Shown here: one piece after another, positions 1,425 to 53,016 of the stretch
Layout of the letters: every line of letters begins with the position of its first letter
Numbering within the stretch: the stretch's first letter is position 1
IMG/VR virus record: IMGVR_UViG_3300042691_031577
Location: 32,001 to 96,000 of that record
DNA length: 64,000 bases
Direction: 5' to 3' (one strand)
DNA from: a virus
Notes under the pieces: generated by a model
The model's database searches: none
What the model was told of the DNA's origin: nothing
Seen by the model: only the letters and a program-made list of their open reading frames with translations
Position numbers and translations under genes: made by a program

Positions 1425-2692
1425 TATGTGAATTTTCCTATTGCTACTACTTCGTCTGTTAAATTTAATGAATAACCTATAGATGATGTATTGAAAGTTG
1501 TCACTACATTTCCTCCACTTTCTAATAAAGATACAGCAGAAGAAGGAACGTATTGGCCGTTAATATAAAACACAAAGTTACTTACTGTTGTAGCTGGTAA
1601 ACTTGATCCTGCTGGTGGTTGTAATATAGATGCACTAGTAAATGTAGCGATATTAGGAACTGTTACAGAACCTGCTATTTTAGTAATATTGGTATTAATA
1701 TATTCTAAATCAGCATTACTTGCTCCTGTGCTTGTTACATTAGTTACATTAATTCCTCCTCCTATAAATGAAGTTGCACCTGTAGCATTTTTAGCTGCTG
1801 GTTTATTTGCAAATTTCATTTCATCTATATTTGTTGTTGTTCCTGCTCCGTCTATTACTTCTAAATTAAAAACCACTTGAGATGTTGTATAAAATTTACT
1901 ACGAGCTACTGCTAAATCTTTATTTACTGTATCAGGAATGATATATCCATTTAAAACAAGATTAAAAGTAGAGCGAGCCGCTCTATCTTCTCCTTGTTCT
2001 AATAAAGTAGTTGTAGTAAATGAATCTATTCTGGCTTTGAATTTCCATCTGTTTGGATCACCCCAATATGAATCAGAAGCAAATTCAATTGCTTCTACTA
2101 ACTTATTGTTTTGTTCAACATAATCTGTAAATACAACACATGAATATGTTAAAGTAACATAATCAGGTACAGCACTCATGTAATACTGTTCTGAGGGTAT
2201 TCTATTATTTATAACAGAGAATCTATCATATGCATTTCTGATATTGTACTTTGTACCTATAACTTGATATAAATGAGCTCTATTGCCGTCTAATTTATTT
2301 CCTAATGTTCTATTTTTTTCAACATTTTCACGTTTGAACATTATAAGAGGAGCTAATCCTTTTCCGTTAGCATCACGATAGAAACCATCTGCTTGAACTG
2401 ATTTCCAACGTTCTGGAGAGCCATAAATTACAGGAACTGTTATTTGTTGTCCGTTTTGTATTACAGATGGTTTTATAACACTTTCAAAATAATATAATAC
2501 AGCATAATCTAAATCTTCTAGTCCTATACTTACGTCTTTAACAGTGTCTCCTTTAAACGAAATATCTTTACCTCTATTTTTAGAAAATACAGTATTACTA
2601 ACAGGTTTTCCTTGATCTTTTAAATAAGGAATAACTTGTTCTTGACTAATTTCAGCTGCATTTTTAGGTATAGGTTTAAGAGATCTAGCCAT
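1424..2692 (-). CDS. Tail sheath stabiliser / tail terminator, T4 gp15-like, with C-terminal extension
   Basis: VPVIYGSPERW and VPDYVTLTY motifs; synteny with gp13/gp14-like genes. Confidence 0.65.
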   Translation of the reverse strand: MARSLKPIPKNAAEISQEQVIPYLKDQGKPVSNTVFSKNRGKDISFKGDTVKDVSIGLEDLDYAVLYYFESVIKPSVIQNGQQITVPVIYGSPERWKSVQADGFYRDANGKGLAPLIMFKRENVEKNRTLGNKLDGNRAHLYQVIGTKYNIRNAYDRFSVINNRIPSEQYYMSAVPDYVTLTYSCVVFTDYVEQNNKLVEAIEFASDSYWGDPNRWKFKARIDSFTTTTLLEQGEDRAARSTFNLVLNGYIIPDTVNKDLAVARSKFYTTSQVVFNLEVIDGAGTTTNIDEMKFANKPAAKNATGATSFIGGGINVTNVTSTGASNADLEYINTNITKIAGSVTVPNIATFTSASILQPPAGSSLPATTVSNFVFYINGQYVPSSAVSLLESGGNVVTTFNTSSIGYSLNLTDEVVAIGKFT

Positions 2693-3054
2693 TACTGTTG
2701 TTTTCTTTGTAATTCTAACATTTTATCTAATGCTAATATCATTTGGGCGGCTTTATATAAATAACTATTAGCGTCTTTAGCTACTTTAGCTATATCTTCA
2801 TTAGTAGAATATTTAAATGCCTGTACTTCTCTTCTGTATTTTAAAACATTTCTTCGTATTTCATCAAATTTAGGAAGTGCTTCAAACTCTTGTGTATAAG
2901 CGCCGGTTTCAGGATCCATAGAAGTTTTTATACTTTTATATCCTCTTTCAAAAGCCTCATCACCTTTTTTAGGTTTAAAAGCAGCTACTTTTTCACCACT
3001 TTTCCCAGTTACAGGGATTTCAGCTTCATTTAATATATCTAATAATTTAATCAT
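2692..3054 (-). CDS. Putative internal head protein with MIKLLDILNE leader (start reassigned from 3135)
   Basis: ATATTTA-N5-ATG immediately before 3054; shared leader motif. Confidence 0.6.
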   Translation of the reverse strand: MIKLLDILNEAEIPVTGKSGEKVAAFKPKKGDEAFERGYKSIKTSMDPETGAYTQEFEALPKFDEIRRNVLKYRREVQAFKYSTNEDIAKVAKDANSYLYKAAQMILALDKMLELQRKQQ

Positions 3055-3065
3055 GTTAATAAATA

Positions 3066-3602
3066 TTATAATCTTGTTTGAGTTATACCTAATATTTCTG
3101 GTCTCATATAATGGCATGTTACTATGATCGACCATGATGAACCAAAATTATCTGTGTTAGTTGAATAAGAATAGTTATAATCCTTACCTACAACTAACTG
3201 ATTTTCGTTTACATTGTCTACTTCATAGTAATCGTTATTCCATAAAACAACATCTCCTATCTCAGGTACTATGTTATATGTAAAGCCTCTAGCATCTGGG
3301 CCAAGTTCGGTGCTTAAGTCAATACCTGCGAGATCATCGCGTAAAAAGCGGCAAGTAATATTACGATTTATATCAGGTCCAAAATCATCTGTTGTTGAGA
3401 TAGTATCTCCGCGTTCAATTAAACAATTTAATAATACCGGGTCATTATATGTCTTTTTAGGAGCCTCACCATACATGTTAGGTAAAGAACGATCCAATAC
3501 TATTTTATAATATCCTACCTTTTGCTCAATGATATCATTGAGTAATTCTCTATTTATATGTCTAAATAGACTTATATCCCTATTTGCTCCAAATAAACTC
3601 AT
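3066..3602 (-). CDS. Neck / head-closure protein, T4 gp14-like
   Basis: MYGE...PEIGDVV..NNDYYEV pattern; lies between gp13- and gp15-like genes. Confidence 0.6.
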   Translation of the reverse strand: MSLFGANRDISLFRHINRELLNDIIEQKVGYYKIVLDRSLPNMYGEAPKKTYNDPVLLNCLIERGDTISTTDDFGPDINRNITCRFLRDDLAGIDLSTELGPDARGFTYNIVPEIGDVVLWNNDYYEVDNVNENQLVVGKDYNYSYSTNTDNFGSSWSIIVTCHYMRPEILGITQTRL

Positions 3603-3940
3603 TATAGGGTAGTTATTTTTTCTAAAGTTTTAAACCTAGGCATAAATTTTAATAATCCTGGAATTTTTTGGGTCGCTAAGGCTCTTCTTTTAATTTCTGC
3701 TATTGATTCTTTTGGATCTTTTCTCACAATATATTTCATATGCAGTAAAGCATATTCAGTTTGATCTGTAATTAAAGTATTTAGATAAGTATTTTGTTCT
3801 ACTTTAACAACAACAACTCCATCTATACCTCTAATTTCATTATAGATATCTACTTTATTTGCTTGTCTTTCTACTTTAATCATTACTTCTATTTCATATA
3901 TAGAAAGTACTTCAAGTAATAAATTTTGTAATTTTACCAT
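3602..3940 (-). CDS. Hypothetical protein with MVKLQNLLLE leader
   Basis: ORF; leader motif. Confidence 0.55.
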   Translation of the reverse strand: MVKLQNLLLEVLSIYEIEVMIKVERQANKVDIYNEIRGIDGVVVVKVEQNTYLNTLITDQTEYALLHMKYIVRKDPKESIAEIKRRALATQKIPGLLKFMPRFKTLEKITTL

Positions 3941-3943
3941 AGC

Positions 3944-5101: not shown

Positions 5102-5146
5102 ATTATATTATTGTAAATATTGTTATATCATATAAATATATGACTA

Positions 5147-8592: not shown

Positions 8593-8883
8593 TTAGATAT
8601 TTTCAATAAAGGTATATTCTGATTCGTCTGATATTTTGTTAATAAGTTGACGAAAATCACTACTGCTTAATTTATTTCCTGGTATTAGGTTAGGGTTTCT
8701 TGGGATGATTACGTCATTTACTATTGTATATACATCATCATGTGAAATTTCATTGTTGTTATAGTTATTATCCATATAAAATATAACTTTATCATATAAT
8801 GTATTTAATAAACTATTATTGTTTTCATTTATAATCCCAGCTAACTGCTGCATTCTTTTGATTTCATTAATTACTGTTTTCAT
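8593..8883 (-). CDS. Small protein with scaffold-like EIKRMQQLAGI leader
   Basis: ORF; first 20 aa shared with 12397..12753. Confidence 0.6.
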   Translation of the reverse strand: MKTVINEIKRMQQLAGIINENNNSLLNTLYDKVIFYMDNNYNNNEISHDDVYTIVNDVIIPRNPNLIPGNKLSSSDFRQLINKISDESEYTFIENI

Positions 8884-9433
8884 GTATATAAATATTATCA
8901 GACTTTACTCTATTATCAGTTATTGTAAGTGGTTGGGTATTAGTGTAGTGGAATGATCCGCCTTTAGCTAACGGATATATATGATCTATTTCCCAATATG
9001 AACCATAATTATCCCAATTTATTTCTGGTGTGAACATTGGTTCAAGGTATTCTTTGTATTCTTGTATTGTACAACCTAAATATTCAATACTACTTTGTGA
9101 TTTACCTTTTTTAAGGTGGTGGTTGATGAGAGCGTTGATTGCGTGGCGGAGACGGAATAGTGGGTCTGTATCCATTTTATACCTATTCCATTCGCGGTAG
9201 TAGTCTTTATTTGTATGATAATGTTCGTTTACTAATTTTTTATGGTATTCTTTGTTTTCTTCTCTCCATTTTGATGTACGAGTATTGTGTTCGTCTTTGT
9301 GAGTAGAATAATATTGTTTACCTTCTACTTTTTGACAGTCTACACAATAACGATGTAGTCCGTCTTTTTCTCCTTTGCGTTTCCAATATTGATCTAGTGG
9401 TTTATCAACACCACATTTTTTACATGTTTTCAT
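8867..9433 (-). CDS. HNH homing endonuclease with N-terminal Zn finger (start reassigned from 9481)
   Basis: CKKC...C..C, WEIDHIYPL..GG..HYTNTQPL...N; late promoter at 9439-9447. Confidence 0.85.
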   Translation of the reverse strand: MKTCKKCGVDKPLDQYWKRKGEKDGLHRYCVDCQKVEGKQYYSTHKDEHNTRTSKWREENKEYHKKLVNEHYHTNKDYYREWNRYKMDTDPLFRLRHAINALINHHLKKGKSQSSIEYLGCTIQEYKEYLEPMFTPEINWDNYGSYWEIDHIYPLAKGGSFHYTNTQPLTITDNRVKSDNIYIHENSN

Positions 9434-9519: not shown

Positions 9520-11115
9520 TTAAAGAGTATTTAAACCAGCAACATATACCTTCCCATAATAATCTGGACGTATCATCTTCTTAGCGTAACGAGTCATCAA
9601 ACCTTTACGTGGAGTGAAGGTATTTGGATCGTACAGAAGTGGAGTCATGATCAACGGAACGTATGGAGCGAATACAGCACCACACTCTAGGAACTGAGCA
9701 CCTTTGTAACCCATTAAGATTACGTTTTCAGTCATGTATGGATTTTTGTATACTTTGTAGCGGCTGTTTAAGCTACCGATTTTCTGGATACCAAAGTTGT
9801 ATTCCATTTTCTCACCATCACCATCTGATGCGAATCCAGGGATAGATTCTAAGATAGTTGCTACGGTAGGTGAAGTAACTAAGAAGTTAGCGCCACCACG
9901 TAGGGTTAACTGATGAATTTTGTTAGATACTTTCTGTAATTTGGTACCTAAAGTTTGGAACCAACCACCTTGAGTGTTATAGAAACCTAAAGCGTTGTTA
10001 GTTACACCACTAGCACCTACAGCTTGATTGTTAATTGCTGACCAGTATTCAGTTGTGAAAGCGTTTTCGATTAACATATCTAACAATTCAAGATCAATTT
10101 CCATTGAAATGTATTGTGATAAGATACCAGTTAATTCAGCTTCAGCGTCTACTGAATGGTAAGCGTTCAAATCTTGAGCGAATTCAGGTGTCCATTGAGC
10201 TTTCAATTTGCGTGTTTTAGCAACGATAGCTTCAGATTTTAACTGAACGTTAATTTCTGGGATAGAAATTGCTGAATTGCTAAGAGCGTTAGGATAACCA
10301 GCACCGCTAGCATCTTCGAAATCACCACGTGAAGTAGCTGTAGGTTGTACGTTGTAGAATAATACTACAGTTTGAGTAGGGTTATTAGATACTAATGAAC
10401 CAGTTACTACGAATGAAGCTGTGTTGTTGGCTACAGTAGTGTAAGTTTGTAAAATATCAGTAGCGGTAATTGAACCTGAAGTGAATACAAACGCGCGTAC
10501 ACCATTTTGGTCAGCAGCAGTAGGTAGAGGAACATTAATTACTTTGTAAGTAGAGAATGAAGATGTGTAATCAGCATCTAAGTTAAATGTAGCCCAGCTA
10601 GTTGAACCAGTTGTAGCAGCGATAGAAGCTGAGAATTGGTTAACAGAATAACCGAATCTACCAGCACCATATAATGAAGCTGAAGCGATATCAGTTACGT
10701 TTGTAGTTGCGTTAGCACCATACAATGAACCGTTAGTAGCGAATGGTTTTACACCAGTACCATATTTGAAATCAAGATAGAATACAAGACCTGAAGGTAA
10801 GTTCATAGGTTGTACACTAACGAATTCTTTTGCAGCGATTTCACCGAATACACGGCGAACTAATGGAAGGGCAACACCGTTCCAGCTCTCACCACTGTAA
10901 GTACCAGCACCAGATGCTTGAGTACCAGTTTGAGAAGTTTCTACTACTAATTGTTTTGCTTGATTTTCTAATAACATAGCCATTGTGTTACGGCTGTTAT
11001 TGTCTTTTAAACCTTCTAATAGGCCTGATTTTGCCCATTTGTCTTGAAGGCGTTTTGCGTCATCTTGAACCGATTTAAATTGGTTTGATGATTCTAATAA
11101 TTGTTGAATGTTCAT
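9520..11115 (-). CDS. Major capsid protein, T4 gp23-like
   Basis: VQPMNLPSGLVF, KTRKLKAQWTPEFAQDLNAYH..DAEAEL, APYVPL, F.PRKGLMTRY. Confidence 0.95.
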   Translation of the reverse strand: MNIQQLLESSNQFKSVQDDAKRLQDKWAKSGLLEGLKDNNSRNTMAMLLENQAKQLVVETSQTGTQASGAGTYSGESWNGVALPLVRRVFGEIAAKEFVSVQPMNLPSGLVFYLDFKYGTGVKPFATNGSLYGANATTNVTDIASASLYGAGRFGYSVNQFSASIAATTGSTSWATFNLDADYTSSFSTYKVINVPLPTAADQNGVRAFVFTSGSITATDILQTYTTVANNTASFVVTGSLVSNNPTQTVVLFYNVQPTATSRGDFEDASGAGYPNALSNSAISIPEINVQLKSEAIVAKTRKLKAQWTPEFAQDLNAYHSVDAEAELTGILSQYISMEIDLELLDMLIENAFTTEYWSAINNQAVGASGVTNNALGFYNTQGGWFQTLGTKLQKVSNKIHQLTLRGGANFLVTSPTVATILESIPGFASDGDGEKMEYNFGIQKIGSLNSRYKVYKNPYMTENVILMGYKGAQFLECGAVFAPYVPLIMTPLLYDPNTFTPRKGLMTRYAKKMIRPDYYGKVYVAGLNTL

Positions 11116-11140: not shown

Positions 11141-12178
11141 TTACTTAATAATGTTAGCTAGTTTTTGCATACGTGAAATAACGTCATTTGACTCTACGAT
11201 TTGTTTCTTAGGAGCAATACCTGCTGCTTTTGAAGCAAATCCTAAAGATTCCTTAATAGGTGATTTCTTTTTAACTGCGCTTAAAGTAGTTTCTAATGAT
11301 TCGTAAACCATTTTAGCTTCTTTAGGTGTAGTTGCTTTGTCGAATGATGCAATCACGTTTAATTTTTGAGATTCAGTTAAGTTTTTAGATTTGAAAATTT
11401 TGTTAACGTAAAGCAATTTAGCGTTTAATAAATTCACTTCATTTAATTCTTTACGAAGTGTATTAATTACGTTAATAGCTTCTTTCATTTCTTTTTTCTC
11501 TTCTTCTTTCTCTTTTTTCATAACTTTTTTCTTTTTAGCTTCTTCTAGTTCTTCATTTTCATCTAATGATTCTAGTTCAGCTAGTAATTCGTCAAGATTG
11601 ATTTCTTCTTCGTCAGACATTTCCATTTCTTCACCACCCATTTCATCACCCATGTCCATACTCATTTCTTCTTCACCGGCTTCAGCTCCCATTTCTCCTG
11701 TTTCCAATTCTTGGCTAACGATGTCTTTAATTAGATCTTTAAGATCTTCAATAGACATGTCTTTAACTTCCATTTCTTCTTCTTCAGTTTCTTCGGTTTC
11801 TTCTTCGCCTTCTTCTTCACCTTCTTCTTCTTTTTCTTCTTCTTTCTTAGCTTCTTCTAAAGTTTCTTCAGCTTCTAGTTCAGCTAAAATAGCAGATAGA
11901 TCGAATTCTTCTTCAAGATTGAAATCAAGATTAGCATCACTGTTTTCTTCGTGAGATGATGTAAATCCTTCTTCCATTTCTTTTTCGCCTTTTTTCATAG
12001 CTTCTTCTTCCATTCCATATTCTTCATCCATGTCCATCTCGTTTAATTTAGCGACTAACATGTTTTGAATACTTGGAGTCAAAGCTTCTTCAAGGGCTTC
12101 TTTTGCGTTTAACAACGCTGCTTCGCGAACGGCTTTAGCGTCAACGATAGCCTCTTCAAATAGTTTTTTGTTTGACAT
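11141..12178 (-). CDS. Prohead scaffold (core) protein
   Basis: Very acidic coiled coil with many L-x-E sites, directly upstream of capsid; ends RMQKLANIIK. Confidence 0.8.
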   Translation of the reverse strand: MSNKKLFEEAIVDAKAVREAALLNAKEALEEALTPSIQNMLVAKLNEMDMDEEYGMEEEAMKKGEKEMEEGFTSSHEENSDANLDFNLEEEFDLSAILAELEAEETLEEAKKEEEKEEEGEEEGEEETEETEEEEMEVKDMSIEDLKDLIKDIVSQELETGEMGAEAGEEEMSMDMGDEMGGEEMEMSDEEEINLDELLAELESLDENEELEEAKKKKVMKKEKEEEKKEMKEAINVINTLRKELNEVNLLNAKLLYVNKIFKSKNLTESQKLNVIASFDKATTPKEAKMVYESLETTLSAVKKKSPIKESLGFASKAAGIAPKKQIVESNDVISRMQKLANIIK

Positions 12179-12396: not shown

Positions 12397-12753
12397 TTAC
12401 ATTTTGGTTATCATATCAAAATCACCTTGTGATTTGACTAACATTATATCTTTCATTTCTGCATCTTCTCCTGGTTCAGGAACATATCCTCCTGGGGGTT
12501 GGATAGGTTTACTTAATTCTATATTTAATATATCTGTTGGATTGTTATCTGACATTATGTCATAATGTTGGATTTGTGTTATTACTCCTGTTAAACCTTC
12601 ATAATATTCTATAGGATTTTCAAATCCATATGCATACATTACTTCAGGATTAAATCTTACTTTATCTCCTACTTTAAAATTAGAAGAATATTCTTCTTTA
12701 ATCAATCCAGCTAATTGCTGCATTCTTTTAATTTCATTTAGTTGTGTTTTCAT
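12397..12753 (-). CDS. Small protein with EIKRMQQLAGL leader and SH3/KOW-like body
   Basis: Leader shared with 8593..8883; FKVGDKVRF. Confidence 0.6.
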   Translation of the reverse strand: MKTQLNEIKRMQQLAGLIKEEYSSNFKVGDKVRFNPEVMYAYGFENPIEYYEGLTGVITQIQHYDIMSDNNPTDILNIELSKPIQPPGGYVPEPGEDAEMKDIMLVKSQGDFDMITKM

Positions 12754-12771: not shown

Positions 12772-13392
12772 TTAACACAAAGCACATACTCCTGTTTGAG
12801 TACATATGATTTCTGTAATTAATTCGTTTACTTTACTATAATTTTTATCTGATTGATATTGTTTACCTTCAGATAATGTCATATATGCGTTTGGAGTACT
12901 AGGTACTGAAACTAAATCCCAGCATAGTAATTCAAAATCGTCTTGAACTTCAACAGTTTCACCTATTTGGCGTACTGAGCCCATACCTCTTGATGATATA
13001 CCTAATGGAATATTAGCTTTAATAATTTCTTGAGCGATTTTACCTGATGGAGTATTTAATAGAGTTAATTCTCCCATTACATCATTACCTTCCCACCATA
13101 TTTTAGTAATTAAGTGAGATACATTACTTAAATTAATGATAGATGATTCAGGGTGATCTAATTCACCTGTTGATGTTCTAGTTTTTAAAGGACCATTTAT
13201 ATATTTGTCTATTTGTTCCTTTAAAACATTAAGAGGATAAACACGACCATTACCGTTTTTAACACCGGCTTCTTGTAATTTACCTCTAACGCGCATCAAA
13301 CCATCGCCTAGTTTACTGTCTTTTCCTTCAGTAATAGGTTGTAGTTTGGCTACGTGGAACGGTATATGATCTACTAGTAATTGCTTATTCAT
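12772..13392 (-). CDS. Prohead core protease, T4 gp21-like
   Basis: N.NGRVYP, GELDHP, LNTPSG, GISSRGMGS, DLVSVPSTPNA. Confidence 0.95.
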   Translation of the reverse strand: MNKQLLVDHIPFHVAKLQPITEGKDSKLGDGLMRVRGKLQEAGVKNGNGRVYPLNVLKEQIDKYINGPLKTRTSTGELDHPESSIINLSNVSHLITKIWWEGNDVMGELTLLNTPSGKIAQEIIKANIPLGISSRGMGSVRQIGETVEVQDDFELLCWDLVSVPSTPNAYMTLSEGKQYQSDKNYSKVNELITEIICTQTGVCALC

Positions 13393-13394
13393 AA

Positions 13395-15152
13395 TTATAT
13401 TTCGTCATTTCTATCTAAGTAAAAATCGTCTTGGTCTTTACCATTAGATAATACTAATTTAATATCATTTCCGAAGGGCTCCACAGAAACTACTTCTACT
13501 TCTTCACCCATTACAAATTTACCTAAATCAGCTCCTAGTTTAAATTTATTACCTACCGATAATGAGCTTGCTTTAGCTTCATCCATTTGATGACCAGCTA
13601 CATCTGTCATATTATCACCACCAGGTAAAGTCGAATACTCTAACATATCATCCATACCACTATCGTATCTTTCGTCAGCGTTATATTGGAATATATTATC
13701 ATCTATTTCTTTAGCAATAGCATCTGAAAAATTATACTTCTTTTGATACATTTTGATCAATTCCAATACATCACTAGAGTCATAACTGTCTCTATTTTCA
13801 AGTTCGTCTATAATTTTTTTTGTTAAAGCATTTACATCAGTATTTTGATTTTCTTTTAAAGCTGCTTTTTTCATCTTTTCACCAGTAGCATCCATTTTCT
13901 TAACGCCACGAACTGTTTTAGCTACTAATGACATTATTTTGATACCGGTTTCTGGTTTATTGGTTTCTTTATTAGCTTTATTAGCAGATGCTTTATCTTT
14001 TTCAATTCCTTTTACGGGTTGCATTCCCATTTTCTTATCAACTACATTGCTCATGTTTTTATCAAGTAATTGCATCTGACGTGCATCTGCATTAGCTGAT
14101 TTACCACCAATATATTCTAGTTCGTATCCTTCTTTACCAGCCATTAATGAGTCAGTATAATAAAATGGATTCTTTTTTAGATTCTTAATTGCGATTTTTG
14201 CGGCTTCTTTTTTGGTTAAATCGTTATTTTTTTCAATTTCATAATCTATACCGATTAAAACTTCTTGACCGTTTAAATTGTCGATTTCAGAAAATTTAGA
14301 ATATAATTCTTTACCACTGGTGTTAGTAGTATAAGATTCATTCAATGACATTCTTTGCTCTAAGTCATCAATCATTTTCTTAATTTTCTCAGTTGGCGTT
14401 TTAGCATATATTTTCTTTAAGAAATTAAGCTCAGATTGGTCTATTTTTTTATCAACACCATATTTTTCTTCTGGGGTTTGTTTAGGTTTGATACTCATAC
14501 TAGCTGCTTTTCTTTCTGCTTCTGCTTCAGGGTCACCTGCTATTCCGTAGATATCAGCTTCTTTTAATGATTCGTATGGTGGTAAATCAAACTCAGTCCA
14601 TCCTAACCATGAACCTGCTTTTAAAGCAGCATCGTAATATTTTTCAGCTTTTAATAAATCACCTTCAGAGTATGCTTGTAATCCTTTTTCATAGTATTCT
14701 TCAGCTTGTACCATAGATTTCATATCAAAATCACGATCGCCATCAGTTGGATCAGATGAAAAATAAGGATTTTCGTTTTCTTCAGTATACATTCCTGTTT
14801 TACCTTTAATAGGATTTAATTCAACAACACCATTAACAGGTTCTGATATTCTATATATAGTATCATCTAATTCTGCTTTTAGTATATTATCAAAAAAAGC
14901 TAATTCAGGAAATACTTCTTTACCATTTAAGGTATAAGTATATTGATCATATTTTTCTAATTTTTCTTGATTTTTATCTTTAATATCAGCTTCAGTTAAG
15001 ATAGCTTTATTTCTTAATATTTTAACAGTATCATCAAATGATGTTGTATTAGTAACTAAATGAGGTAAAGTCATACGAACGTTACGCATAAATTGCGCTT
15101 GATTCATTTTACCTTCTTTTAAATCTATAAATTGTTGTTTTACACTTTTCAT
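13395..15152 (-). CDS. Large putative internal head polyprotein
   Basis: Head-module location; repeated ILTE/SLKE/SLNE/ALKE sites separating segments. Confidence 0.55.
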   Translation of the reverse strand: MKSVKQQFIDLKEGKMNQAQFMRNVRMTLPHLVTNTTSFDDTVKILRNKAILTEADIKDKNQEKLEKYDQYTYTLNGKEVFPELAFFDNILKAELDDTIYRISEPVNGVVELNPIKGKTGMYTEENENPYFSSDPTDGDRDFDMKSMVQAEEYYEKGLQAYSEGDLLKAEKYYDAALKAGSWLGWTEFDLPPYESLKEADIYGIAGDPEAEAERKAASMSIKPKQTPEEKYGVDKKIDQSELNFLKKIYAKTPTEKIKKMIDDLEQRMSLNESYTTNTSGKELYSKFSEIDNLNGQEVLIGIDYEIEKNNDLTKKEAAKIAIKNLKKNPFYYTDSLMAGKEGYELEYIGGKSANADARQMQLLDKNMSNVVDKKMGMQPVKGIEKDKASANKANKETNKPETGIKIMSLVAKTVRGVKKMDATGEKMKKAALKENQNTDVNALTKKIIDELENRDSYDSSDVLELIKMYQKKYNFSDAIAKEIDDNIFQYNADERYDSGMDDMLEYSTLPGGDNMTDVAGHQMDEAKASSLSVGNKFKLGADLGKFVMGEEVEVVSVEPFGNDIKLVLSNGKDQDDFYLDRNDEI

Positions 15153-15555: not shown

Positions 15556-15686
15556 TATCGTCCTTGTCCTCTATAGTTTTGTTCTGAGCTATCGTGTTTG
15601 TTAGTGCGTTTTTGAGCTTTGCCTTTTTTACGAACGCCAAAGCTTATTTTACGTGATTCTTTAGATGCTGCTTTTGCTTTTGCCAT
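15555..15686 (-). CDS. 43-aa basic protein ending YRGQGR (absent from ORF track)
   Basis: MAKAKAASKESRKISFGVRKKGKAQKRTNKHDSSEQNYRGQGR; TAATG overlaps at both ends. Confidence 0.75.
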   Translation of the reverse strand: MAKAKAASKESRKISFGVRKKGKAQKRTNKHDSSEQNYRGQGR

Positions 15687-16795
15687 TACTGGTAGATTGA
15701 TTTAATTTTATTGCTAATTTTATTTGATATTTCACTAATTTCATTTATAGCTTTTAAGCTACGCTTCCAATAGTTTGTACCATCTTCGTTTTCACTTAAT
15801 TCTTGTTTAATACGAGTAGTATATTCAATTAATTGATCTACTTCAGATAATTTACGTTTTACTTCACGAATACTTTTATGAAGCATTTCTGCTTTAGTTC
15901 TATATTTAACTTCGTTTTTAAATTTATTATACGATACTTCGTTTAATAATTCTTCTTTAATAAGATTATTCAACACTTCTTCTAAAGGATAATCAAATGG
16001 TTCTTCACCTGTTATTTTACTACTTTTAATATATTCTATTAAAGATTCAATATTATTAAAATAAGTATATCCTTCTTCTCTTCCTAAATTATCTATTTCT
16101 AAAACAAAATATGGTTTATCACCAGATGTAGTTTCTCCACATATTAAAGTCATAAATCCAGAACCATCTGCATAATCAACAGGTATTTGTACTCTGGCTA
16201 AATTTTTATTTTTACCTGAATAAACTATTTTAGCTTCTTCAAAAATAGGTTTTATTGCTGATAGTATATTATTTGCAGATTCTTGGTATTTAATATTTTG
16301 TTCATTCATTGCTGATTTTTTACCTTTCCAAAGTTCTTTATAATCTAACATTTTAGAATTTTTAGGCATACCTTTAACTGTTTTAAATCCCATTTTTTCA
16401 GCGTATTTAGTTGCTTTATTTTTCTTTTGTCCTTTAGGAGCAAAAGCATATGGGGTTTGAATAGGACCTGCTCCAACACCAATAGCGCCAGTAGCTGATT
16501 CTTCATTCATACCCATTAATTTTTTATACATAGATAAATCAGATAAGCTTTGACCTTCAGGATTCTTAGCTAAGTTATCTATTTGATCAATAGTTACTTC
16601 ACCTGAATCAAGTGCTTTTTTTAACCAAGTACCATTTATTATGTTATGTTTATATAAAAATGATTTAGCTTTATCATCATTTCTAGTATAAATATTTAAC
16701 CAATTATATAATGTATCCCAGTTACTAGATTCATTTTCAAGAACATTTTCTAGTTCTTCTTTAATAATCTGTTTTAATAAAGATACTTTCATCAT
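15686..16795 (-). CDS. Putative internal head polyprotein with LKQIIKEEL leader
   Basis: Leader motif; internal MNEE/MNEQ/LLNE sites. Confidence 0.55.
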   Translation of the reverse strand: MMKVSLLKQIIKEELENVLENESSNWDTLYNWLNIYTRNDDKAKSFLYKHNIINGTWLKKALDSGEVTIDQIDNLAKNPEGQSLSDLSMYKKLMGMNEESATGAIGVGAGPIQTPYAFAPKGQKKNKATKYAEKMGFKTVKGMPKNSKMLDYKELWKGKKSAMNEQNIKYQESANNILSAIKPIFEEAKIVYSGKNKNLARVQIPVDYADGSGFMTLICGETTSGDKPYFVLEIDNLGREEGYTYFNNIESLIEYIKSSKITGEEPFDYPLEEVLNNLIKEELLNEVSYNKFKNEVKYRTKAEMLHKSIREVKRKLSEVDQLIEYTTRIKQELSENEDGTNYWKRSLKAINEISEISNKISNKIKSIYQ

Positions 16796-17680: not shown

Positions 17681-19585
17681 TTATATGTCCTTAATATTTT
17701 CTTCAGATAATAAGTCAGAATCTAAATCAGGATTATATACTATATCTTTTCTTAAATGATTCATAGATTCAAGTAAATGCTTATTCTTATGTAGTTCAGT
17801 TAATGCTAATGGAGAACCACCTTTAGGTGTACCACTATCCATATCATTACTAGGTTTATTAGCAGTATATAGAGTATTCATGCCTTTTTTACCTAATCTA
17901 TCTTTACCTAATGGATCTTTCTGTGTGTTTATAATAGAAGATTTTTCTTTTGGACGACCTATTGGTGCTTTTTCATCATATCCACCAGGTATGTTTTGTT
18001 GTGCTTCCATTCCTGTTCTACCACGACCATACAGTGCTGCTAAGTCATGAGGTGTTCCGTATGATTTACCTGATTTAGCTGGGTCATTACCCTCGTTTTC
18101 GATTTGGCCTAAACGGAATGTACGTTTTTTATCTTCCATTACTAAATCACGTAATTCATCATATTGATCTTCTGATAGTTTAAATACATTATCATAAATC
18201 CAATCAGACGGGATTAAATTAGTATCTAATAAGTCTTTAGCTAATGCAACTTTTTCTTTCCATATAGCTATTTTCTCTTGATCATATATGATTGAAGGAG
18301 TAGTTAATGATAATTCAAAATTACCTAATGATTCACCATCGTATCCTTGAACATATAAATGAACTAATGCTATTTTATATAATTCGGATAATACAATACG
18401 TTGGATACGTTCTACTGTGCGAGCAAAACGAATATCTTCAGCTGCTAATGTTGCTTTACCTGTTAAATCTTTTTCAAATCCAAAAAACGCTTTAGGTACT
18501 TTAAGAGCAGCTAACATTTCATCACGTAAGAAATTTACGTCCTCAATAGCATTATACTCTAATCCTTTAATAGTATCGATTTTAGTATTTGAATTAGTAC
18601 CACGTTGAGGTATATAGAAATCCTCCATAACATTCATCATGTTATATTTAAGATTATATTCACCTGTGTTTTGGTCAATATAAGGAGTTTTCTTCATTTT
18701 TTGCTTTAAACGCTCCATATAACCATCAACCTCATTTGGTGGCATATTTCCAATATCAACGTAAAATACACGTTTTTCTGGGGCGCGAGTAATACGATGT
18801 AGTAACATCGCATCTTTCATTAAAATATATTGTTTATATGTTTTACGAGCTGGCTCTATGTATGATCTACCATATGGAAGATAGTTAGCATCTGCTAATA
18901 ATCTAAAGTGAGCTATTTCGTAGTTTTCAAATTTAATCTTTCCCTCTCTATCGTTTATACGGCTATTAATACCACCAGCAGCAATAACCATTGGATCTAT
19001 CTTAAAGCATACATAATTAGGATTTTCAGGATCAGTTCCTTCTTCACGAACCATATCATAAACTGATAATGGAGATACATTATATACTCCAAATTTTTCA
19101 GCTATGTCTAAGTGTAAATAAAAATCACCATACTTACACATATTTCTAATCCATACCCATAAATTAAATTCAATATTTAAAATATCGTAGAATAAATTAT
19201 ACAATATGCGTTGAATATTTTCGTCTGAACTTCTAATTTGAATTATTTCTCCTGTTTCATTTTTTAATGTAGCTTCATCAGCTACAATATCAAGAGCAGA
19301 GGCTATGATTGATTCTGTATCCATTGCTTCATAATCAGTATATAACTGAATACGAAGTGTTTGGTAATTCATTGTAGGATTATAAGGCATATTAGCTCCA
19401 TATCTATGGAGTTTAGTAAACCTATCAATCAGGGCATTTGTTTTTACGTTACCATATGCTTGAATGCGGTCAACATCTGTTGTTTTTAGTTGTTTTCCGC
19501 CTACATTTCTAATGATAACATCAGTACTAAATAGACGTCTTAATTGCCCAAATAGTCCCGTGTTATTTATATTATTTTCTGCCAT
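17681..19585 (-). CDS. Portal protein, T4 gp20-like
   Basis: RAPEKRVFYVDIGNMP, EDFYIPQR, ALKVP, EDIRFARTVERIQ. Confidence 0.93.
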   Translation of the reverse strand: MAENNINNTGLFGQLRRLFSTDVIIRNVGGKQLKTTDVDRIQAYGNVKTNALIDRFTKLHRYGANMPYNPTMNYQTLRIQLYTDYEAMDTESIIASALDIVADEATLKNETGEIIQIRSSDENIQRILYNLFYDILNIEFNLWVWIRNMCKYGDFYLHLDIAEKFGVYNVSPLSVYDMVREEGTDPENPNYVCFKIDPMVIAAGGINSRINDREGKIKFENYEIAHFRLLADANYLPYGRSYIEPARKTYKQYILMKDAMLLHRITRAPEKRVFYVDIGNMPPNEVDGYMERLKQKMKKTPYIDQNTGEYNLKYNMMNVMEDFYIPQRGTNSNTKIDTIKGLEYNAIEDVNFLRDEMLAALKVPKAFFGFEKDLTGKATLAAEDIRFARTVERIQRIVLSELYKIALVHLYVQGYDGESLGNFELSLTTPSIIYDQEKIAIWKEKVALAKDLLDTNLIPSDWIYDNVFKLSEDQYDELRDLVMEDKKRTFRLGQIENEGNDPAKSGKSYGTPHDLAALYGRGRTGMEAQQNIPGGYDEKAPIGRPKEKSSIINTQKDPLGKDRLGKKGMNTLYTANKPSNDMDSGTPKGGSPLALTELHKNKHLLESMNHLRKDIVYNPDLDSDLLSEENIKDI

Positions 19586-19614: not shown

Positions 19615-21213
19615 TTAGCCTAATAACCAGCTAATATCTTCTACTCCACCAACACCATTATCTAGTTGGTATGGATTTTGAAATCCCGGTTGCATGTTAC
19701 TATACATTCCTGGGGTTTTAGTATTGCTTATATTTAAAACAGCTGCTCTAGTTAAATCTAAACCTTGAGCGCTAAATTTTAGACCAGTGTCACGAACAAA
19801 TAAACCAATACCTAATGCCATTGCCAAATCATCATTATATCCATTTTGCGCTTGTGCTTTACCATTTTGCCAAATAAACACACGTAGCTCTTCTAATAGA
19901 CGTTTAGAGTGAAAAATAAACGATCTTTCTCTAATGTACGTCTCCATCTTTGAGATGACAAGTGGTCTTGTACGAGTAGAGTTAGTAAAACCAGGAACTG
20001 TGTTATCGCTTTCCATTTTGGCCATCCATTTATCTATATTCATTTCACCATATGATCTAGGTGAATAATATAGATTAGGATATCCTCGTTCTATAATTGT
20101 ATTTACAACGTCCCATCCTATATTAGCGTTTTCTACTACGAGTAAAGCATTGTTGTATTCACCTGCTATAGAAACTAATACATGACCAAATTCACGGGTA
20201 CTAACCTGAGATTTGTATTCGGCTACTTGCTCACAATTTTCTAAATCAATAACATGGAATGTAGAATAGTCAGTTCCATCACCACGAGCAACGTCAGCAC
20301 ATACTATATAGTTTTTAGAGTAATTTGGATATTGCCATATCCATAAATCACCCCCCATTAATCGTCTTTCTATAGGATCTTGAATATATGTTTGCTCGTA
20401 AAATCCTAAAATTTCTGATTCTATTACAGTATTACCTGATCCTAAAAAGTCACAATCATATTCTTGAGCAAATTCACGAGGCGACATATTAGATCGTTCT
20501 CTTTGTTCCCATTCAGGGTCTACAGGGGCAACACGATCAGGGTGTAAATTCCATGGTAATTTAATTGCTTTAAAGTCGTTGTCACCAACTTCTGCTTCAG
20601 TATACATTCTATGAAACCAGTTACCTACACCATTAGGTGAAGATAAAGCTATAATACCACCACCAGTAGCAATTGTAGGTTTAATACTCGTGTATATTTT
20701 ATCAATACCCTCGATAAACGCAGCCTCATCCACTATTAGTAAAGATACTGCGTATGATCGACCAGCATCGGATGCTGCTGATGTAGCTACGATTTGAGAG
20801 TTATTAGCTAATTTAAGTGATAATTTGTTATCGGAAATAGGTTTTTGATTACCTCTTAACCAACTAGGAAGATTGTTATACATAAACTGTACTTTTTCAA
20901 CCATGCCTTTAGCGGTTTCTTGTTTAGTAGCGATACATAGTACTGTTTTATCTTTATGGAATAACATAGTCCATAATGAATATCCAGCTACTAGAGTTGA
21001 TATACCTAACTGGCGAGATTTATTGATGATAGTAAATCTATTATCTCGAATATCTTGTAATGTATCGGCCTGAAATGGATATAGGTGAAATAGTACTCGT
21101 CCTTTTACAGGATGGGTTATATAACAATATTTACGAAAAAAATGGATTGGATCAGTAGCACATTTAATGTATTCTTGCTTTATGATCTCCTTAATTTGTT
21201 GTTGATTACTCAT
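19615..21213 (-). CDS. Terminase large subunit, T4 gp17-like
   Basis: KSRQLGIST Walker A, LLIVDEAAF Walker B, SSPNG, QEYDCDF, DVARG, DDL nuclease motif. Confidence 0.95.
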   Translation of the reverse strand: MSNQQQIKEIIKQEYIKCATDPIHFFRKYCYITHPVKGRVLFHLYPFQADTLQDIRDNRFTIINKSRQLGISTLVAGYSLWTMLFHKDKTVLCIATKQETAKGMVEKVQFMYNNLPSWLRGNQKPISDNKLSLKLANNSQIVATSAASDAGRSYAVSLLIVDEAAFIEGIDKIYTSIKPTIATGGGIIALSSPNGVGNWFHRMYTEAEVGDNDFKAIKLPWNLHPDRVAPVDPEWEQRERSNMSPREFAQEYDCDFLGSGNTVIESEILGFYEQTYIQDPIERRLMGGDLWIWQYPNYSKNYIVCADVARGDGTDYSTFHVIDLENCEQVAEYKSQVSTREFGHVLVSIAGEYNNALLVVENANIGWDVVNTIIERGYPNLYYSPRSYGEMNIDKWMAKMESDNTVPGFTNSTRTRPLVISKMETYIRERSFIFHSKRLLEELRVFIWQNGKAQAQNGYNDDLAMALGIGLFVRDTGLKFSAQGLDLTRAAVLNISNTKTPGMYSNMQPGFQNPYQLDNGVGGVEDISWLLG

Positions 21214-34190: not shown

Positions 34191-34613
34191 TTATTTATTT
34201 AAACGAACAGTAGCAGCTTTAGTATTTTTTACAAACTGTTTGCCTTTTTTGCTACCGGCTACTTTTTTTCGTGATGTAGCAGCACGTTCGGCTTTAGTTA
34301 AACTTTGAGCCTTTTTACGTGGTAAACAACGCGTGGTTGCTTTACCTTTTTTCATTGTCCCGCAAGGTCCCGTAATATTACCTTGTGTATCTATTCTTAC
34401 CCAATCTTCTTTTTTAAACCAATCACGAAGTGATTCATGCATGTCCAAATCATCTTCTTCCATTAAACCTTTACATACTTTAACAGCACGACCAGAAAGA
34501 TAAGCGGATGGTTTTTCACCAGCAGCTATACGACGATTATAATAAGCTTTGCCTTTAGGGCATAGCTTTTTTTCTGTTAATATTTCGTTTAGTATGTCTG
34601 TTAGTTTAATCAT
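34191..34613 (-). CDS. Basic protein with MIKLTDILNE leader (DUF5872-like C-terminal part)
   Basis: SLRDWFKKEDWV, PCG, RCLP..KA. Confidence 0.6.
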   Translation of the reverse strand: MIKLTDILNEILTEKKLCPKGKAYYNRRIAAGEKPSAYLSGRAVKVCKGLMEEDDLDMHESLRDWFKKEDWVRIDTQGNITGPCGTMKKGKATTRCLPRKKAQSLTKAERAATSRKKVAGSKKGKQFVKNTKAATVRLNK

Positions 34614-34870
34614 GATTTATGTATCTTTAGTTTTAACGTACCTGTACCTTTAATAACGCGATGCCAAGTATGTCTCTCAATAAATATTGGCTGATTCATG
34701 GAAGTCGGCAGCTGGTTATCAAGCTGTATTTTCCAGTCAGTTTCACCTATAATTTGCAGTGTGCGATTTTCATCATCGCGATGCCACATTAATTCGATAG
34801 GATCTATATTTTCGTTAAATTCACGAATAATGTAGGTATCTGTAGTTTCTAAATCAGTATAGGGATGCAT
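34610..34870 (-). CDS. Small cupin-like protein
   Basis: WHRD.E.R and WHRVIKG motifs. Confidence 0.6.
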   Translation of the reverse strand: MHPYTDLETTDTYIIREFNENIDPIELMWHRDDENRTLQIIGETDWKIQLDNQLPTSMNQPIFIERHTWHRVIKGTGTLKLKIHKS

Positions 34871-35115
34871 TACTTCTTAGGATGAAACCAATTACTACAA
34901 TATTTTGATGGGTCTTTGATAGATTCTTTGGTTTTTGGATTTATTAAATCCTCAGTACCCATAAGTTTTTGGTAATACTTATTTTTACATTTGTGTTTAC
35001 CTTCTTCCTGATAATGGTATTCACATACGTGACAACCAAAGCCTATGGATGAATACATGTATGATGGGTATTCCTCACCTTCATGTTCTTTTAATATATC
35101 TGTTAGTTTAATCAT
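34870..35115 (-). CDS. Cys-rich small protein with MIKLTDILKE leader
   Basis: CHVC...C...YCSNW. Confidence 0.65.
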   Translation of the reverse strand: MIKLTDILKEHEGEEYPSYMYSSIGFGCHVCEYHYQEEGKHKCKNKYYQKLMGTEDLINPKTKESIKDPSKYCSNWFHPKK

Positions 35116-35466
35116 TTGTTTAATCGTTTAGTTTTTTCTTTAGATGCTTCTTTACGTTTAGTAATATATTCTAATCCTCTTTTTAATCTTGCTTTTACTT
35201 CAGGATCTTTTGCTTTACCATAAGCTGCTCTAACACGTTGGTGAATTAAATTAATAATTTGTGATTGTCTAGCGTGTGATTTAGATTTGAATGATGTTTT
35301 AGATAATGTATCTTTTATATCTTGAACTGTTTTAAATTTAACACGAACAGTATCAGATGGATCTTCATCTGTGTATAAGCGACGACCTGATCCTTTAGGT
35401 TTTTTACCTGTGCCTACTTTAGGGTCTCTTTCTAATAATAAATCTGTTAGTTTGATCATTTGTTTA
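35098..35466. repeat. 25-bp direct repeats (35098-35122 and 35442-35466, 24/25 identical) flanking one gene; 17-bp core also at 34597-34613
   Basis: atctgttagttt(a/g)atcatttgttta. Confidence 0.85.
35112..35459 (-). CDS. Basic protein with MIKLTDLLLE leader
   Basis: GTGKKPKGSGRRLYTDEDP. Confidence 0.65.
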   Translation of the reverse strand: MIKLTDLLLERDPKVGTGKKPKGSGRRLYTDEDPSDTVRVKFKTVQDIKDTLSKTSFKSKSHARQSQIINLIHQRVRAAYGKAKDPEVKARLKRGLEYITKRKEASKEKTKRLNK

Positions 35467-35471
35467 TTTAT

Positions 35472-36086
35472 TTAAATACTGTATAAATGCTCTACTACAG
35501 TACGTTTTACTATTCTTCTAACAGCATTTACCTGTTCTATTTTACTTTTAGCAGTTATATCACCATTTTTCCAATAATTAACAGCTTGTTGATATGATTC
35601 ATTTATATGTTCCATTCGTTTTTGAATATTGGCTTCTGCTACATCTTCAATACGATTCATAACTACTGAATATTCAGGTGTATTATCAATTTTATATTGG
35701 TTATTGAATAAATCTTGTAATTTATTTATAAATGATTGTGATTTATAAATATTGGTTTTGGTATCAGTATTACCTGATATCTCTATAGATTTAGGATGTT
35801 TATTTTGAATAAAATCTGCTAATATTTTATATGAAGTAGCAGTTATTTGTTTCCACGCTTCTGGTGTAGTGTTTTGATTATTATCTGTAAAAGACCAAGC
35901 TATGGTCCATTTATTGTTTTGTATATCTATTCTTCTAAAGTAATATTCTGCTTCAATATCTTGTCCATTTCCTACAACGTATTTAGTATCAGATATTTTT
36001 TCTATATTAGGTAAAGGTTTATCGAACATTTCTAATATTCGACTTAACTCTTCTTTAATATATTTTTTTAAATATGTTACTTTCAT
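35472..36086 (-). CDS. Hypothetical protein with LKKYIKEELSRILE leader
   Basis: Leader motif; late promoter at 36091-36099. Confidence 0.6.
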   Translation of the reverse strand: MKVTYLKKYIKEELSRILEMFDKPLPNIEKISDTKYVVGNGQDIEAEYYFRRIDIQNNKWTIAWSFTDNNQNTTPEAWKQITATSYKILADFIQNKHPKSIEISGNTDTKTNIYKSQSFINKLQDLFNNQYKIDNTPEYSVVMNRIEDVAEANIQKRMEHINESYQQAVNYWKNGDITAKSKIEQVNAVRRIVKRTVVEHLYSI

Positions 36087-36100: not shown

Positions 36101-36748
36101 CTACCAATAACCGCTAAAGCTGGTCTTAAAACCCAAGAGCTTGCTGTACCTGGGGAGCCTACAACTCCAATACGACGCCTTAGTTCTGTCTTTTTTATTT
36201 TTACAATCATGACGAGCAGCAAACGCTTTACGTGCTTTTGGGTTATTTAATTTAGCACGTAATCCTGTAGTATCACCAAACGATACTTTTTTAATTCCGC
36301 CTCCTGGTTTACGAACGTAAACGTAGAATTTTTTAGATCCACCACGTTTTGGTTTACCAATAGGCGGTGTTTTTTTCTTTTGTTTAGCGGCCTCAGTAAT
36401 TAATTCATCAATACTGATTGGATAATCAAGTGGAACAGTTATCCCATTATATTCACCAAACTCACCTATATTAGATTCTAATAATTCAGCATCGTCTTCA
36501 ACTACAGATAATAAACCTTTGTTGTATAATTCACGTGCTTCACGGAATAATTCAAAATAATTTTTAGATAATGGGCGGTAAACATTATGAATTAACATTT
36601 TACCTTCTCTGATGTGGTATTTTAATCCTTCAGATAAAACTAAATTATTAGTAGATTCTGTTAGGACTAATTTAGGACCATTACACCCACAATCATCTTC
36701 TTTAAATAATTCTTCTTGTATTATTTGGCGTAGTGTTGATATTTTCAT
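36101..36748 (-). CDS. Leader-bearing protein with basic C-terminal domain (KKVSFGD / F.ARH.C / YWSC)
   Basis: LRQIIQEEL leader; internal LITE. Confidence 0.65.
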   Translation of the reverse strand: MKISTLRQIIQEELFKEDDCGCNGPKLVLTESTNNLVLSEGLKYHIREGKMLIHNVYRPLSKNYFELFREARELYNKGLLSVVEDDAELLESNIGEFGEYNGITVPLDYPISIDELITEAAKQKKKTPPIGKPKRGGSKKFYVYVRKPGGGIKKVSFGDTTGLRAKLNNPKARKAFAARHDCKNKKDRTKASYWSCRLPRYSKLLGFKTSFSGYW

Positions 36749-49690: not shown

Positions 49691-49733
49691 AATTATAAGA
49701 TTTATTTTCCTATAAATATGGTATATACATGTT

Positions 49734-50390: not shown

Positions 50391-50436
50391 AACCTTTTTT
50401 TGTAAACATAAGAAGAGGACTTTGCCCTCCTCATAT

Positions 50437-52260: not shown

Positions 52261-52262
52261 TT

Positions 52263-52673
52263 TTATTGAAATTCTATAGTAACTTGATCTGGGGTTCCTG
52301 AAATATTTAAGGTATAATTAACTGTTACGTTTATGGTATTTGTATCTTCGCTAAAAACCACATCAACATTGCTTATACTTGCTTGTGGGATATAAGTTGT
52401 AAATGAAGCAGCTACTCTATCTTGAATTATACTTTTAAGATTATCTGTCATCCCCTCAAATAATAGATCTTTTATATCAGCCCCAAAATTAGGGTTCATT
52501 ATTCTTTCACCTCTATTTGTTAATAAAAGATTAATAACGTTAGATTTTATTTGATCTTTAGTACTATATGTTTTATTAAATACCCCGGGTCCATTAAAAG
52601 GTAGAGATACCCCAATAGCAATATTTTTTTGCAAATCTAAGGGATCTATACGTGTTACTTGAGGTATGGGCAT
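52263..52673 (-). CDS. Baseplate wedge / sheath initiator, gp25-like
   Basis: IKSNVINLLLTNRGERIMNPNFG. Confidence 0.9.
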   Translation of the reverse strand: MPIPQVTRIDPLDLQKNIAIGVSLPFNGPGVFNKTYSTKDQIKSNVINLLLTNRGERIMNPNFGADIKDLLFEGMTDNLKSIIQDRVAASFTTYIPQASISNVDVVFSEDTNTINVTVNYTLNISGTPDQVTIEFQ

Positions 52674-52674
52674 G

Positions 52675-53016
52675 TTATCCTAAATTACTTAAACCGGCTT
52701 TATCCTGAGCAGTCATACTTAATGCAGCATCCATTATAAAATTAGTAAATGGATTTTCATTGGTTTTATCAACAACTAACGGTACACCGTTATTAGATAC
52801 AGTAGGTTGTTCAAAACCAAACATGGCTCCCATTTTACTTCTCAATTGTGCTCTTACATCACCTGCGGCTGAAACATCATTGCTAGTAAAATTAAATGTT
52901 TTATTTTCTTGCAATGGTTTTGCTGGTTTATTTTCATTTAAAATAGCATGTAATTCCTCGCGAACTGCTTCGGCTACTGCCTCTTTGATTAAATTTTTAA
53001 ATGTTTTTACATTCAT
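52675..53016 (-). CDS. Hypothetical protein with FKNLIKEAVAEAVREEL leader
   Basis: Leader motif; ATATTTA-N5-ATG. Confidence 0.6.
   Translation of the reverse strand: MNVKTFKNLIKEAVAEAVREELHAILNENKPAKPLQENKTFNFTSNDVSAAGDVRAQLRSKMGAMFGFEQPTVSNNGVPLVVDKTNENPFTNFIMDAALSMTAQDKAGLSNLG

Follow-up and report, generated by a model that had tools for sequence, protein, structure and literature searches.

In bacteriophage T4, the internal proteins IPI, IPII and IPIII and the Alt protein carry a capsid-targeting sequence (CTS) that is removed by the prohead protease gp21 (Mullaney and Black 1996, as reviewed in PMC9026906 and PMC3012670). In IPIII, targeting requires residues 4 and 7 and processing requires residues 8 and 10, and CTS propeptides are 10–19 residues long (PMC9026906). 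Here we describe a comparable set of leaders in a 64,000-nucleotide stretch of viral DNA (the window), which comprises bases 32001–96000 of one 110,141-bp viral contig (IMG/VR record IMGVR_UViG_3300042691_031577) from an uncultured T4-like lake phage. About 17 minus-strand genes located between 2.7 and 53 kb encode proteins that are otherwise unrelated but begin with a short, amphipathic leader, Phi-x-x-Phi-Phi-x-E (Phi, hydrophobic residue). These leaders are real, N-terminal, selected at the protein level, portable, phage-specific and associated with gp21; they finish with the protease motif, and their genes are part of late gene strings. They are likely to be T4-type capsid-targeting propeptides, roughly threefold more numerous than in T4, that would be removed by a protease encoded at 12772–13392.

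The likeness to the T4 CTS is found in an N-terminal leader of 10–20 residues, in unrelated bodies, in the (L/I)-x-E end, in the presence of a gp21-family protease gene and in a cargo set that differs between related phages. The leaders that we call class A run in the register of the T4 CTS MKTYQEFIAE (L4, I/L7, L/I8 and E10), a match of pattern only. Among T4-species sequences, Phi-x-x-Phi-Phi-x-E is fitted by gp24 (MAKINELLRE↓S; arrows mark cleavage sites, predicted ones in the case of the window), by gp23 (FGSFLTE↓A) and by two open reading frames (ORFs) beginning MKTYQEFIAE. The differences are, however, evident. The sequences themselves (MIKLxDILxE, LKxxIKE and EIKRMQQLAGxIxE) are unlike MKTYQEFIAE; three or more leader classes coexist in a genome and are swapped between orthologues; and about 17 genes are tagged, compared with a group of four in T4. 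Tagged bodies elsewhere include lysozymes, an M23 peptidase, a NUDIX protein, a kinase and an exonuclease, and packaging is in our case predicted from sequence. T4 gp21 also has known or proposed sites on structural and core proteins, and comparable conserved sites are found here on the major capsid protein, on the protease itself and on a 585-residue head protein. Unlike those T4 substrates, which have fixed roles, the tagged proteins are mostly small accessory proteins of unknown function.

A second point of comparison is offered by the giant phages phiKZ, 201phi2-1 and SPN3US, in which a gp21-related protease cleaves many of the head proteins after Glu (PMC5694885, PMC9026906), as is predicted here. 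Their propeptides have several redundant sites, and paralogues with identical N-termini occur (PMC5694885, PMC9026906). However, the giant-phage motif is (S/A/G)-x-E and the propeptides often exceed 100 residues, while the tags of the window have 10–20 residues, a hydrophobic P3 and unrelated bodies. Our literature searches brought up neither these leader classes nor an enlarged CTS repertoire for Flavobacterium-type T4-like phages, and they gave no virion proteome for a close relative. The 131 virion proteins reported for Atu_ph07 (PMC6102473) belong to a phage of a distant lineage.

Leader classes and tagged genes

The genome is estimated to be 66% complete, has a GC content of about 31%, and carries nearly every gene on the minus strand. 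Its nearest cultured relative is the T4-like Flavobacterium myovirus vB_FspM_immuto (MW353175; hereafter immuto), with about 70% nucleotide identity across the head genes. Three leader classes were distinguished, all of them at the extreme N-terminus and all reducible to Phi-x-x-Phi-Phi-x-E: class A, MIKLxDILxE (10 residues); class B, M-x4-LKxxIKE (12–13 residues); and class C, MKTxxNEIKRMQQLAGxIxE (20 residues). All strong members of the window end in (L/I)-x-E, the gp21 cleavage motif. The candidate genes are as follows:

2692–3054, minus strand: class A, MIKLLDILNE↓A, 110-residue basic body; late-type box 4 nucleotides (nt) before the ATG
3602–3940, minus strand: class A-like, MVKLQNLLLE↓V; the orthologue in genome G004 begins MGLLGKILLNE
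8593–8883, minus strand: class C, MKTVINEIKRMQQLAGIINE↓N, acidic body; late-type box 4 nt before the ATG
12397–12753, minus strand: class C, MKTQLNEIKRMQQLAGLIKE↓E, acidic 98-residue body; between protease and scaffold
15686–16795, minus strand: class B, MMKVSLLKQIIKE↓E, 369-residue multi-module head-cluster protein with internal Phi-N-E joints
21930–22826, minus strand: class B-like, MTPKQIRAVVKE↓V, weaker member; late-type box 25 nt upstream
25686–26159, minus strand: uncertain member; the leader-like stretch is internal to the ORF, at Met76; N-terminal part matches ExoX-like_C
27643–28014, minus strand: class A, MIKLVNIIQE↓I
28014–28451, minus strand: class B, MNSKVLRQLIRE↓T, followed via a linker by a WYL_2-like beta-barrel (Pfam WYL_2, E-value 1e-8)
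29283–29810, minus strand: weak leader MNKTLLLE↓K; body homologous to the C-terminal module of an 841-residue immuto protein
29803–30270, minus strand: class A, MIKLIDLLE↓KK, ahead of a second Met
30649–31332, minus strand: class B, MKQSELKKLIKE↓A, basic 215-residue body; late-type box 16 nt upstream
34191–34613, minus strand: class A, MIKLTDILNE↓ILTE↓, basic four-Cys body; weak DUF5872 match
34870–35115, minus strand: class A, MIKLTDILKE↓H, 71-residue four-Cys body; DNA repeat at the gene boundary
35112–35459, minus strand: class A, MIKLTDLLLE↓R, very basic body (isoelectric point 10.5)
35472–36086, minus strand: class B, MKVTYLKKYIKE↓E; late-type box 5 nt before the ATG
36101–36748, minus strand: class B, MKISTLRQIIQE↓E, basic four-Cys body; late-type box 4 nt before the ATG
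52675–53016, minus strand: class B, MNVKTFKNLIKE↓A, doubtful head cargo; inside the baseplate module

An earlier note on this DNA had proposed that about 20 unrelated proteins share such leaders. The recurrence is confirmed, with a count nearer 17. All seven class A starts that it listed (3054, 3940, 28014, 30270, 34613, 35115 and 35459) are present on the minus strand, the one at 30270 with its Glu at position 9 instead of 10. Its class B list is clear at 16795, 28451, 31332, 36086, 36748 and 53016 and weaker at 22826 and 29810. As for the internal class B leader placed at 25934, a leader-like stretch (MKIKQLREAIRE) does exist there, but at the internal Met76 of ORF 25686–26159. Class C (starts 8883 and 12753) was absent from the list. 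Of the body types described, the WYL-like barrel and the Cys-rich and basic domains hold, while the calcium loop is found only as a sub-threshold dockerin-like match for 30270. Four cysteines are present in each of the proteins starting at 34613, 35115 and 36748, and the predicted mature isoelectric point is 10.1–10.5 for those at 34613 and 35459.

Comparison with other genomes added detail on individual members. The G004 orthologue of 2692–3054 begins MKLLDLLKE. The G004 orthologue of 30270 was initially a candidate for a leaderless form, and was rejected as such: the same leader is present on a GTG start. No orthologue of 21930–22826 was found among three compared genomes, and tblastn of the class C protein 12397–12753 against 50,697 cultured phage records gave no match. 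The location of the latter gene is reminiscent of the T4 prohead core genes 67 and 68 when gene orders are compared. Pfam and PHROG searches with the tagged bodies of the window yielded mostly no match or families of unknown function, and no family in these searches spans the leaders themselves. In the ESM Atlas, 36101–36748 retrieved nothing beyond virus-only hypothetical clusters. A single-sequence AlphaFold2 model of 28014–28451 (mean pLDDT confidence score 65) shows a helix at residues 3–22, a low-confidence linker at 23–56 and then a beta-barrel, an arrangement weakly compatible with a tag on a tether.

An 864-residue protein without family (31356–33950) opens with MNNIHILIE, a nine-residue Phi-Phi-E start. 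Its start resembles LIE-9 of T4 gp21 and MIKLIDLLE of 30270, and it may be a further large tagged cargo.

Enrichment at N-termini

A tight regular expression was scored at the first 14 start positions of each protein. It matched at 13 of 2,408 N-terminal start positions compared with 2 of 32,056 internal ones, an enrichment of about 86-fold, and shuffled proteins gave on average 0.06 matching proteins. The pattern was composed after the leaders had been seen, but the contrast between N-terminal and internal positions is independent of that choice.

An unsupervised search for unrelated bodies that have the first 10 residues in common returned exactly the CTS group in T4 (four ORFs). The same search in this genome returned six class A genes (plus 3054), four of class B and two of class C. 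The expansion claimed in the earlier note is therefore true but modest: one group of four in T4 against groups of 6 (+1), 4 and 2 in a 66%-complete genome. In immuto, true signal-peptide-like N-termini formed a separate group. The leaders do not have the make-up of Sec, Tat or lipoprotein signal peptides, in which a basic N-region precedes a continuous hydrophobic core of about 10 or more residues; instead, a charged or polar residue occurs every 2–3 positions (K3, D6, N/K9 and E10).

The predicted cut site of class C could be examined independently, since the pattern used to retrieve these proteins ended at LAG and left the Glu outside. A Phi-x-E was found within four residues of LAG in 76 of 84 proteins, compared with 3.4% at control positions. 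Many class C proteins have a second site, QLNE, directly after the first; redundant cleavage sites have been described in giant-phage propeptides (PMC5694885).

Association with late genes

Of 100 ORFs on the late and structural side, 13 have a strict leader, whereas the 60 ORFs of the early small-ORF region have none (p = 0.002). Equal frequency on early ORFs was the outcome that the earlier note had named as contrary to its proposal, and it is not what we observe. The box ATATTTAT lies upstream of the terminase and portal genes, of genes of the structural module and of eight leader genes; leader genes without a box of their own lie further along the same gene strings.

The late-promoter-like ATATTTAT ends 4–6 nt before the ATG of about 12 genes, among them those with minus-strand starts at 3054, 8883, 12753, 15152, 26159, 36748, 53016 and 58334. 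Because of this short distance, the mRNAs may be leaderless or nearly so. In a second group of genes, the box is located 14–30 nt upstream.

Head module and prohead protease

The head module follows the order terminase, portal, 284-residue gene, 369-residue gene, 585-residue gene, gp21-type protease, 118-residue gene, scaffold-like gene and major capsid protein. The members that matter here, besides the tagged genes already listed, are the following:

19615–21213: terminase
17681–19585: portal
13395–15152, minus strand: 585-residue head-module protein, candidate substrate outside the earlier list; Phi-x-x-Phi-x-E↓GK at residue 13
12772–13392, minus strand: gp21-family prohead protease, proposed processing enzyme; phrog_207, E-value 9e-54; PDB 5JBL, E-value 2e-19
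11141–12178, minus strand: acidic scaffold-like protein in the gp22 position; 21 Phi-x-E sites; synteny with immuto and G004
9520–11115, minus strand: major capsid protein, gp23-like, reference substrate; phrog_138, E-value 5e-73

The gp21 identity assigned earlier to 12772–13392 is borne out by these matches, 5JBL being the solved structure of the T4 prohead protease, and by the catalytic His and Ser residues of Peptidase S77/T4 gp21 (His85 and Ser140 in T4 numbering), which are invariant in a five-way alignment. Near its own N-terminus, the protease has a conserved Phi-Phi-x-E↓(G/S)K site. In the major capsid protein, KQLVVE↓T aligns with the FLTE↓A site of T4 gp23, and the N-terminus reads MNIQQLLE↓S. 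The residue-13 site of the 585-residue protein is also retained by its orthologues in G004 and immuto. PHROG searches gave no family for the 585-residue protein and no match for the scaffold-like protein.

Two genes for nucleases were also noted within the late region: a GIY-YIG-type homing endonuclease (23390–24073) and an endonuclease VII/HNH-like gene (8867–9433), which is located between the capsid gene and a class C gene.

Leader swaps and module joints

Orthologous bodies can carry leaders of different classes. The WYL_2-like body of 28014–28451 (class B) is 78% identical to a G004 protein bearing a class C leader, and the C-terminal domain of the class B protein 36101–36748 has its match in a G004 protein that begins with a class A leader. 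Such pairs, together with the presence of the leaders on dozens of unrelated metagenomic bodies, agree with the description of the library as swappable.

The motif is also found inside larger proteins. In 15686–16795, a conserved module starts directly after an internal ...MGMNE↓ES, and the same module starts right after the N-terminal leaders of a 73-residue immuto protein and a 169-residue G004 protein. In the 841-residue immuto protein, the modules of 30270 and 29810, which are separate genes here, are joined by a class-B-like KSELKE↓IMLE↓. Homology boundaries thus coincide with predicted cleavage sites, which suggests that the cut motif also joins modules inside larger head proteins. Enrichment of Phi-N-E within individual proteins was tried as a further indicator and discarded, as the best value (p = 0.004, for 16795) is not significant after correction for 161 ORFs.

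A 5'-nucleotidase-like enzyme (YCDMDGVL) has a class-B-like leader in immuto (MW353175 109856–110455) and a class A leader in G005:C1:154408–154917. A tagged P-loop protein is encoded at 158114–158875 of G005.

Distribution in other phages

The leaders head dozens of unrelated proteins on more than 200 viral contig stretches, nearly always at gene starts. A degenerate DNA pattern for class A matched at least 120 viral contigs. Among the matches listed, 147 of 148 open an ORF of at least 40 residues, and 139 of 148 lack an upstream in-frame ATG. When the first 12 residues were removed, 154 class A proteins (among the matches listed) fell into 67 BLAST clusters, 51 of them singletons. Class C was found on 92 stretches, with the motif exactly six residues after the Met in 72 of 99 matches, and 85 class C proteins gave 58 body clusters. 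As a control, the class A pattern was searched in 596 Gb of prokaryotic genomes: it produced 89 matches, of which 45 lie inside longer ORFs and 25 are start-like, several of these on phage-like contigs of metagenome-assembled genomes. The leaders are therefore phage-specific and near background in prokaryotic genomes.

Two contigs of bacterial metagenome-assembled genomes are evidently phage DNA: L313 carries gp21 and portal homologues, and L321 carries three class A ORFs in tandem.

Where a metagenomic cargo body matches Pfam, it is an enzyme. Such cargoes include lysozymes of two types, an M23 peptidase, a cell-wall hydrolase, a NUDIX protein, an RNase T-type exonuclease, a zeta-toxin/AAA_33 kinase and a RimK-type ATP-grasp protein. 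Most bodies match nothing. A gp21 homologue was detected in 18 of 31 leader-bearing records, including each of the 11 with a completeness of 78% or more; records without one are fragments.

A fourth leader, MENFDLKKFLVENKLT, heads four immuto ORFs with unrelated bodies (L001:1803–2318; MW353175 103806, 117631 and 118632) and was not seen in the window. In the 368,758-bp jumbo phage record G002, which has terminal repeats, a gp21-like match lies within a 367-residue open frame (G002:C1:71505–72404); the proteases of other relatives have about 205 residues. G002 also carries a class A leader gene.

Conservation at the protein and DNA levels

The leaders are conserved at the protein level. Those of the window vary at synonymous sites, and their upstream DNA is not common to them. 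In 137 dereplicated metagenomic class A leaders (among the matches listed), codons 2, 3, 4, 8 and 10 are used as in gene bodies.

DNA repeats at gene boundaries are confined to the trio at 34.6–35.5 kb, where direct repeats (34572–34628, 35086–35142 and 35430–35474) run across the start codons of three class A genes that lie side by side; the best pair is 84% identical over 45 nt. These repeats fit recent duplication or cassette recombination at the leader. One may thus consider that leader DNA serves as a short stretch of homology for recombination that shuffles gene cassettes, the peptide being incidental, and the fact that orthologues bear different leaders would also agree with this. Outside the trio, however, leaders differ synonymously and their flanks are not shared, and conservation tracks the amino-acid pattern across distant genomes. 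As the main role of the leader DNA, recombination is in our view highly improbable; as a secondary effect, it is compatible with capsid targeting.

Arguments against capsid targeting

Several observations weigh against a role in capsid targeting. One concerns the loose expression Phi-x-x-Phi-Phi-x-E, which is enriched at N-termini only 2.4–3.9-fold in this phage and three relatives. In the T4-species genome, the enrichment is 3.0-fold and includes a DNA-ligase-like ORF that is probably not packaged. As T4 shows equal enrichment, single weak members (22826 and 29810) may be false. The loose expression was for this reason rejected as a counting tool, and the case was built on families of near-identical leaders because the loose pattern is too unspecific. 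Another observation is a codon bias in class A: codon 6 (Asp) is GAC in 64% of cases compared with 17% in bodies, and codon 7 (Ile) is ATA in 95% compared with 46% in gene bodies (loci L005–L124). Selection on the protein does not explain this bias. It marks a constraint that acts locally on the nucleotides and may serve to avoid the promoter-like ATATTT, as GAT ATT TTA would resemble the late box.

Both observations would agree with leaders that were the product of a general gene-start bias in an AT-rich genome without Shine-Dalgarno sequences (caused by codon choice, an mRNA operator or common N-terminal helices) and had no part in sorting. The position of several leader genes, which begin 4–6 nt after a promoter-like box, points in the same direction, as first codons may matter for leaderless translation. 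A bias of this kind seems nevertheless very unlikely. Synonymous usage matches that of gene bodies at five of seven codons, near-identical leaders of 10–20 residues recur on unrelated bodies and at internal module joints, and both the 60 early ORFs without a leader and the near-background frequency in prokaryotic genomes are at odds with it.

The genomic setting raises a different objection. The gene starting at 53016 is conserved within the baseplate module, with the next two genes downstream encoding baseplate wedge subunits, and replication-type genes (e.g., for a DNA polymerase exonuclease subunit) are interspersed among leader genes. The capsid-targeting interpretation put forward in the earlier note is partly supported: every computational test run agrees with it, but 53016 fits a head role poorly. 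Portable tags need not signal the capsid, and many tagged bodies are enzymes (NUDIX, kinase, exonuclease and ATP-grasp). The leader might then be recognised by another phage or host machine, for example a chaperone, a modifying enzyme or a regulated protease, or else serve as an oligomerisation helix; in both cases the proteins would act in the infected cell. We regard this explanation as unlikely. Neither this genome nor any of five complete leader-bearing relatives has a radical-SAM gene (PF04055), while control genomes were all positive, and gp21 is the sole partner found to be shared by all near-complete genomes. The gp21 motif closes the leaders even where the search did not impose it; in addition, the leaders match the register of the T4 CTS, and module boundaries fall at the site.

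Two further reservations apply to the capsid-targeting reading itself. What the leaders share with the T4 CTS is a pattern and a register; sequences so short do not demonstrate homology, and class C is the only class with the MKT start. Besides, cleavage, packaging and ejection are so far predictions, for the tagged proteins and for the cultured relatives alike.

Proposed mechanism and significance

We infer a pathway of prohead-core binding, cleavage, packaging and delivery, which can be outlined as follows:

(i). A tagged protein would be made late, and the amphipathic helix at its N-terminus would take it into the prohead during assembly. In class A, hydrophobic residues 4, 7 and 8 would form the contact face.

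(ii). The gp21-family protease (12772–13392) would cut after the Glu of Phi-x-E, thus freeing the mature body inside the head.

(iii). The mature body could exit with the DNA at the next infection; the cargo roles put forward in the earlier note, all of them hypothetical, are host takeover, anti-defence and DNA condensation.

(iv). The lineage would use at least three interchangeable leader classes here, plus a fourth in immuto, and about 17 genes would be tagged.

A system of this type is known from T4; what is new are the leader sequences and the fact that several classes are interchangeable, together with a repertoire about three times as large per genome, cargoes that are enzymes and a wide spread in metagenomes. 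An attractive speculation, to which we give a small chance, is that the leader classes (A, B and C, and D in immuto) are not redundant variants but constitute an address code, whereby the class would govern how many copies are loaded, where in the head they lie or in which order they are released. If so, phages could retune their cargo by swapping leaders, and about a tenth of the genes of the lineage would encode proteins delivered with the DNA. Their cargo would include cell-wall hydrolases, nucleases and kinases, partly in the form of polyproteins cut at the same motif.

Because the cultured relative immuto, which grows on Flavobacterium sp. LMO8, has the same leaders, the capsid-targeting prediction is directly testable. 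If it is correct, the leaders would provide ready-made packaging tags for engineering such phages, and would permit a listing, from sequence only, of proteins that enter the host before phage gene expression and are thus prime candidates for anti-defence and takeover functions. Capsid targeting of the T4 type would then be no peculiarity of T-even coliphages but a general mode of modular cargo loading across a large set of uncultured aquatic T4-like phages. These phages, which probably infect Bacteroidota, would hold several interchangeable tags and hundreds of different cargoes.

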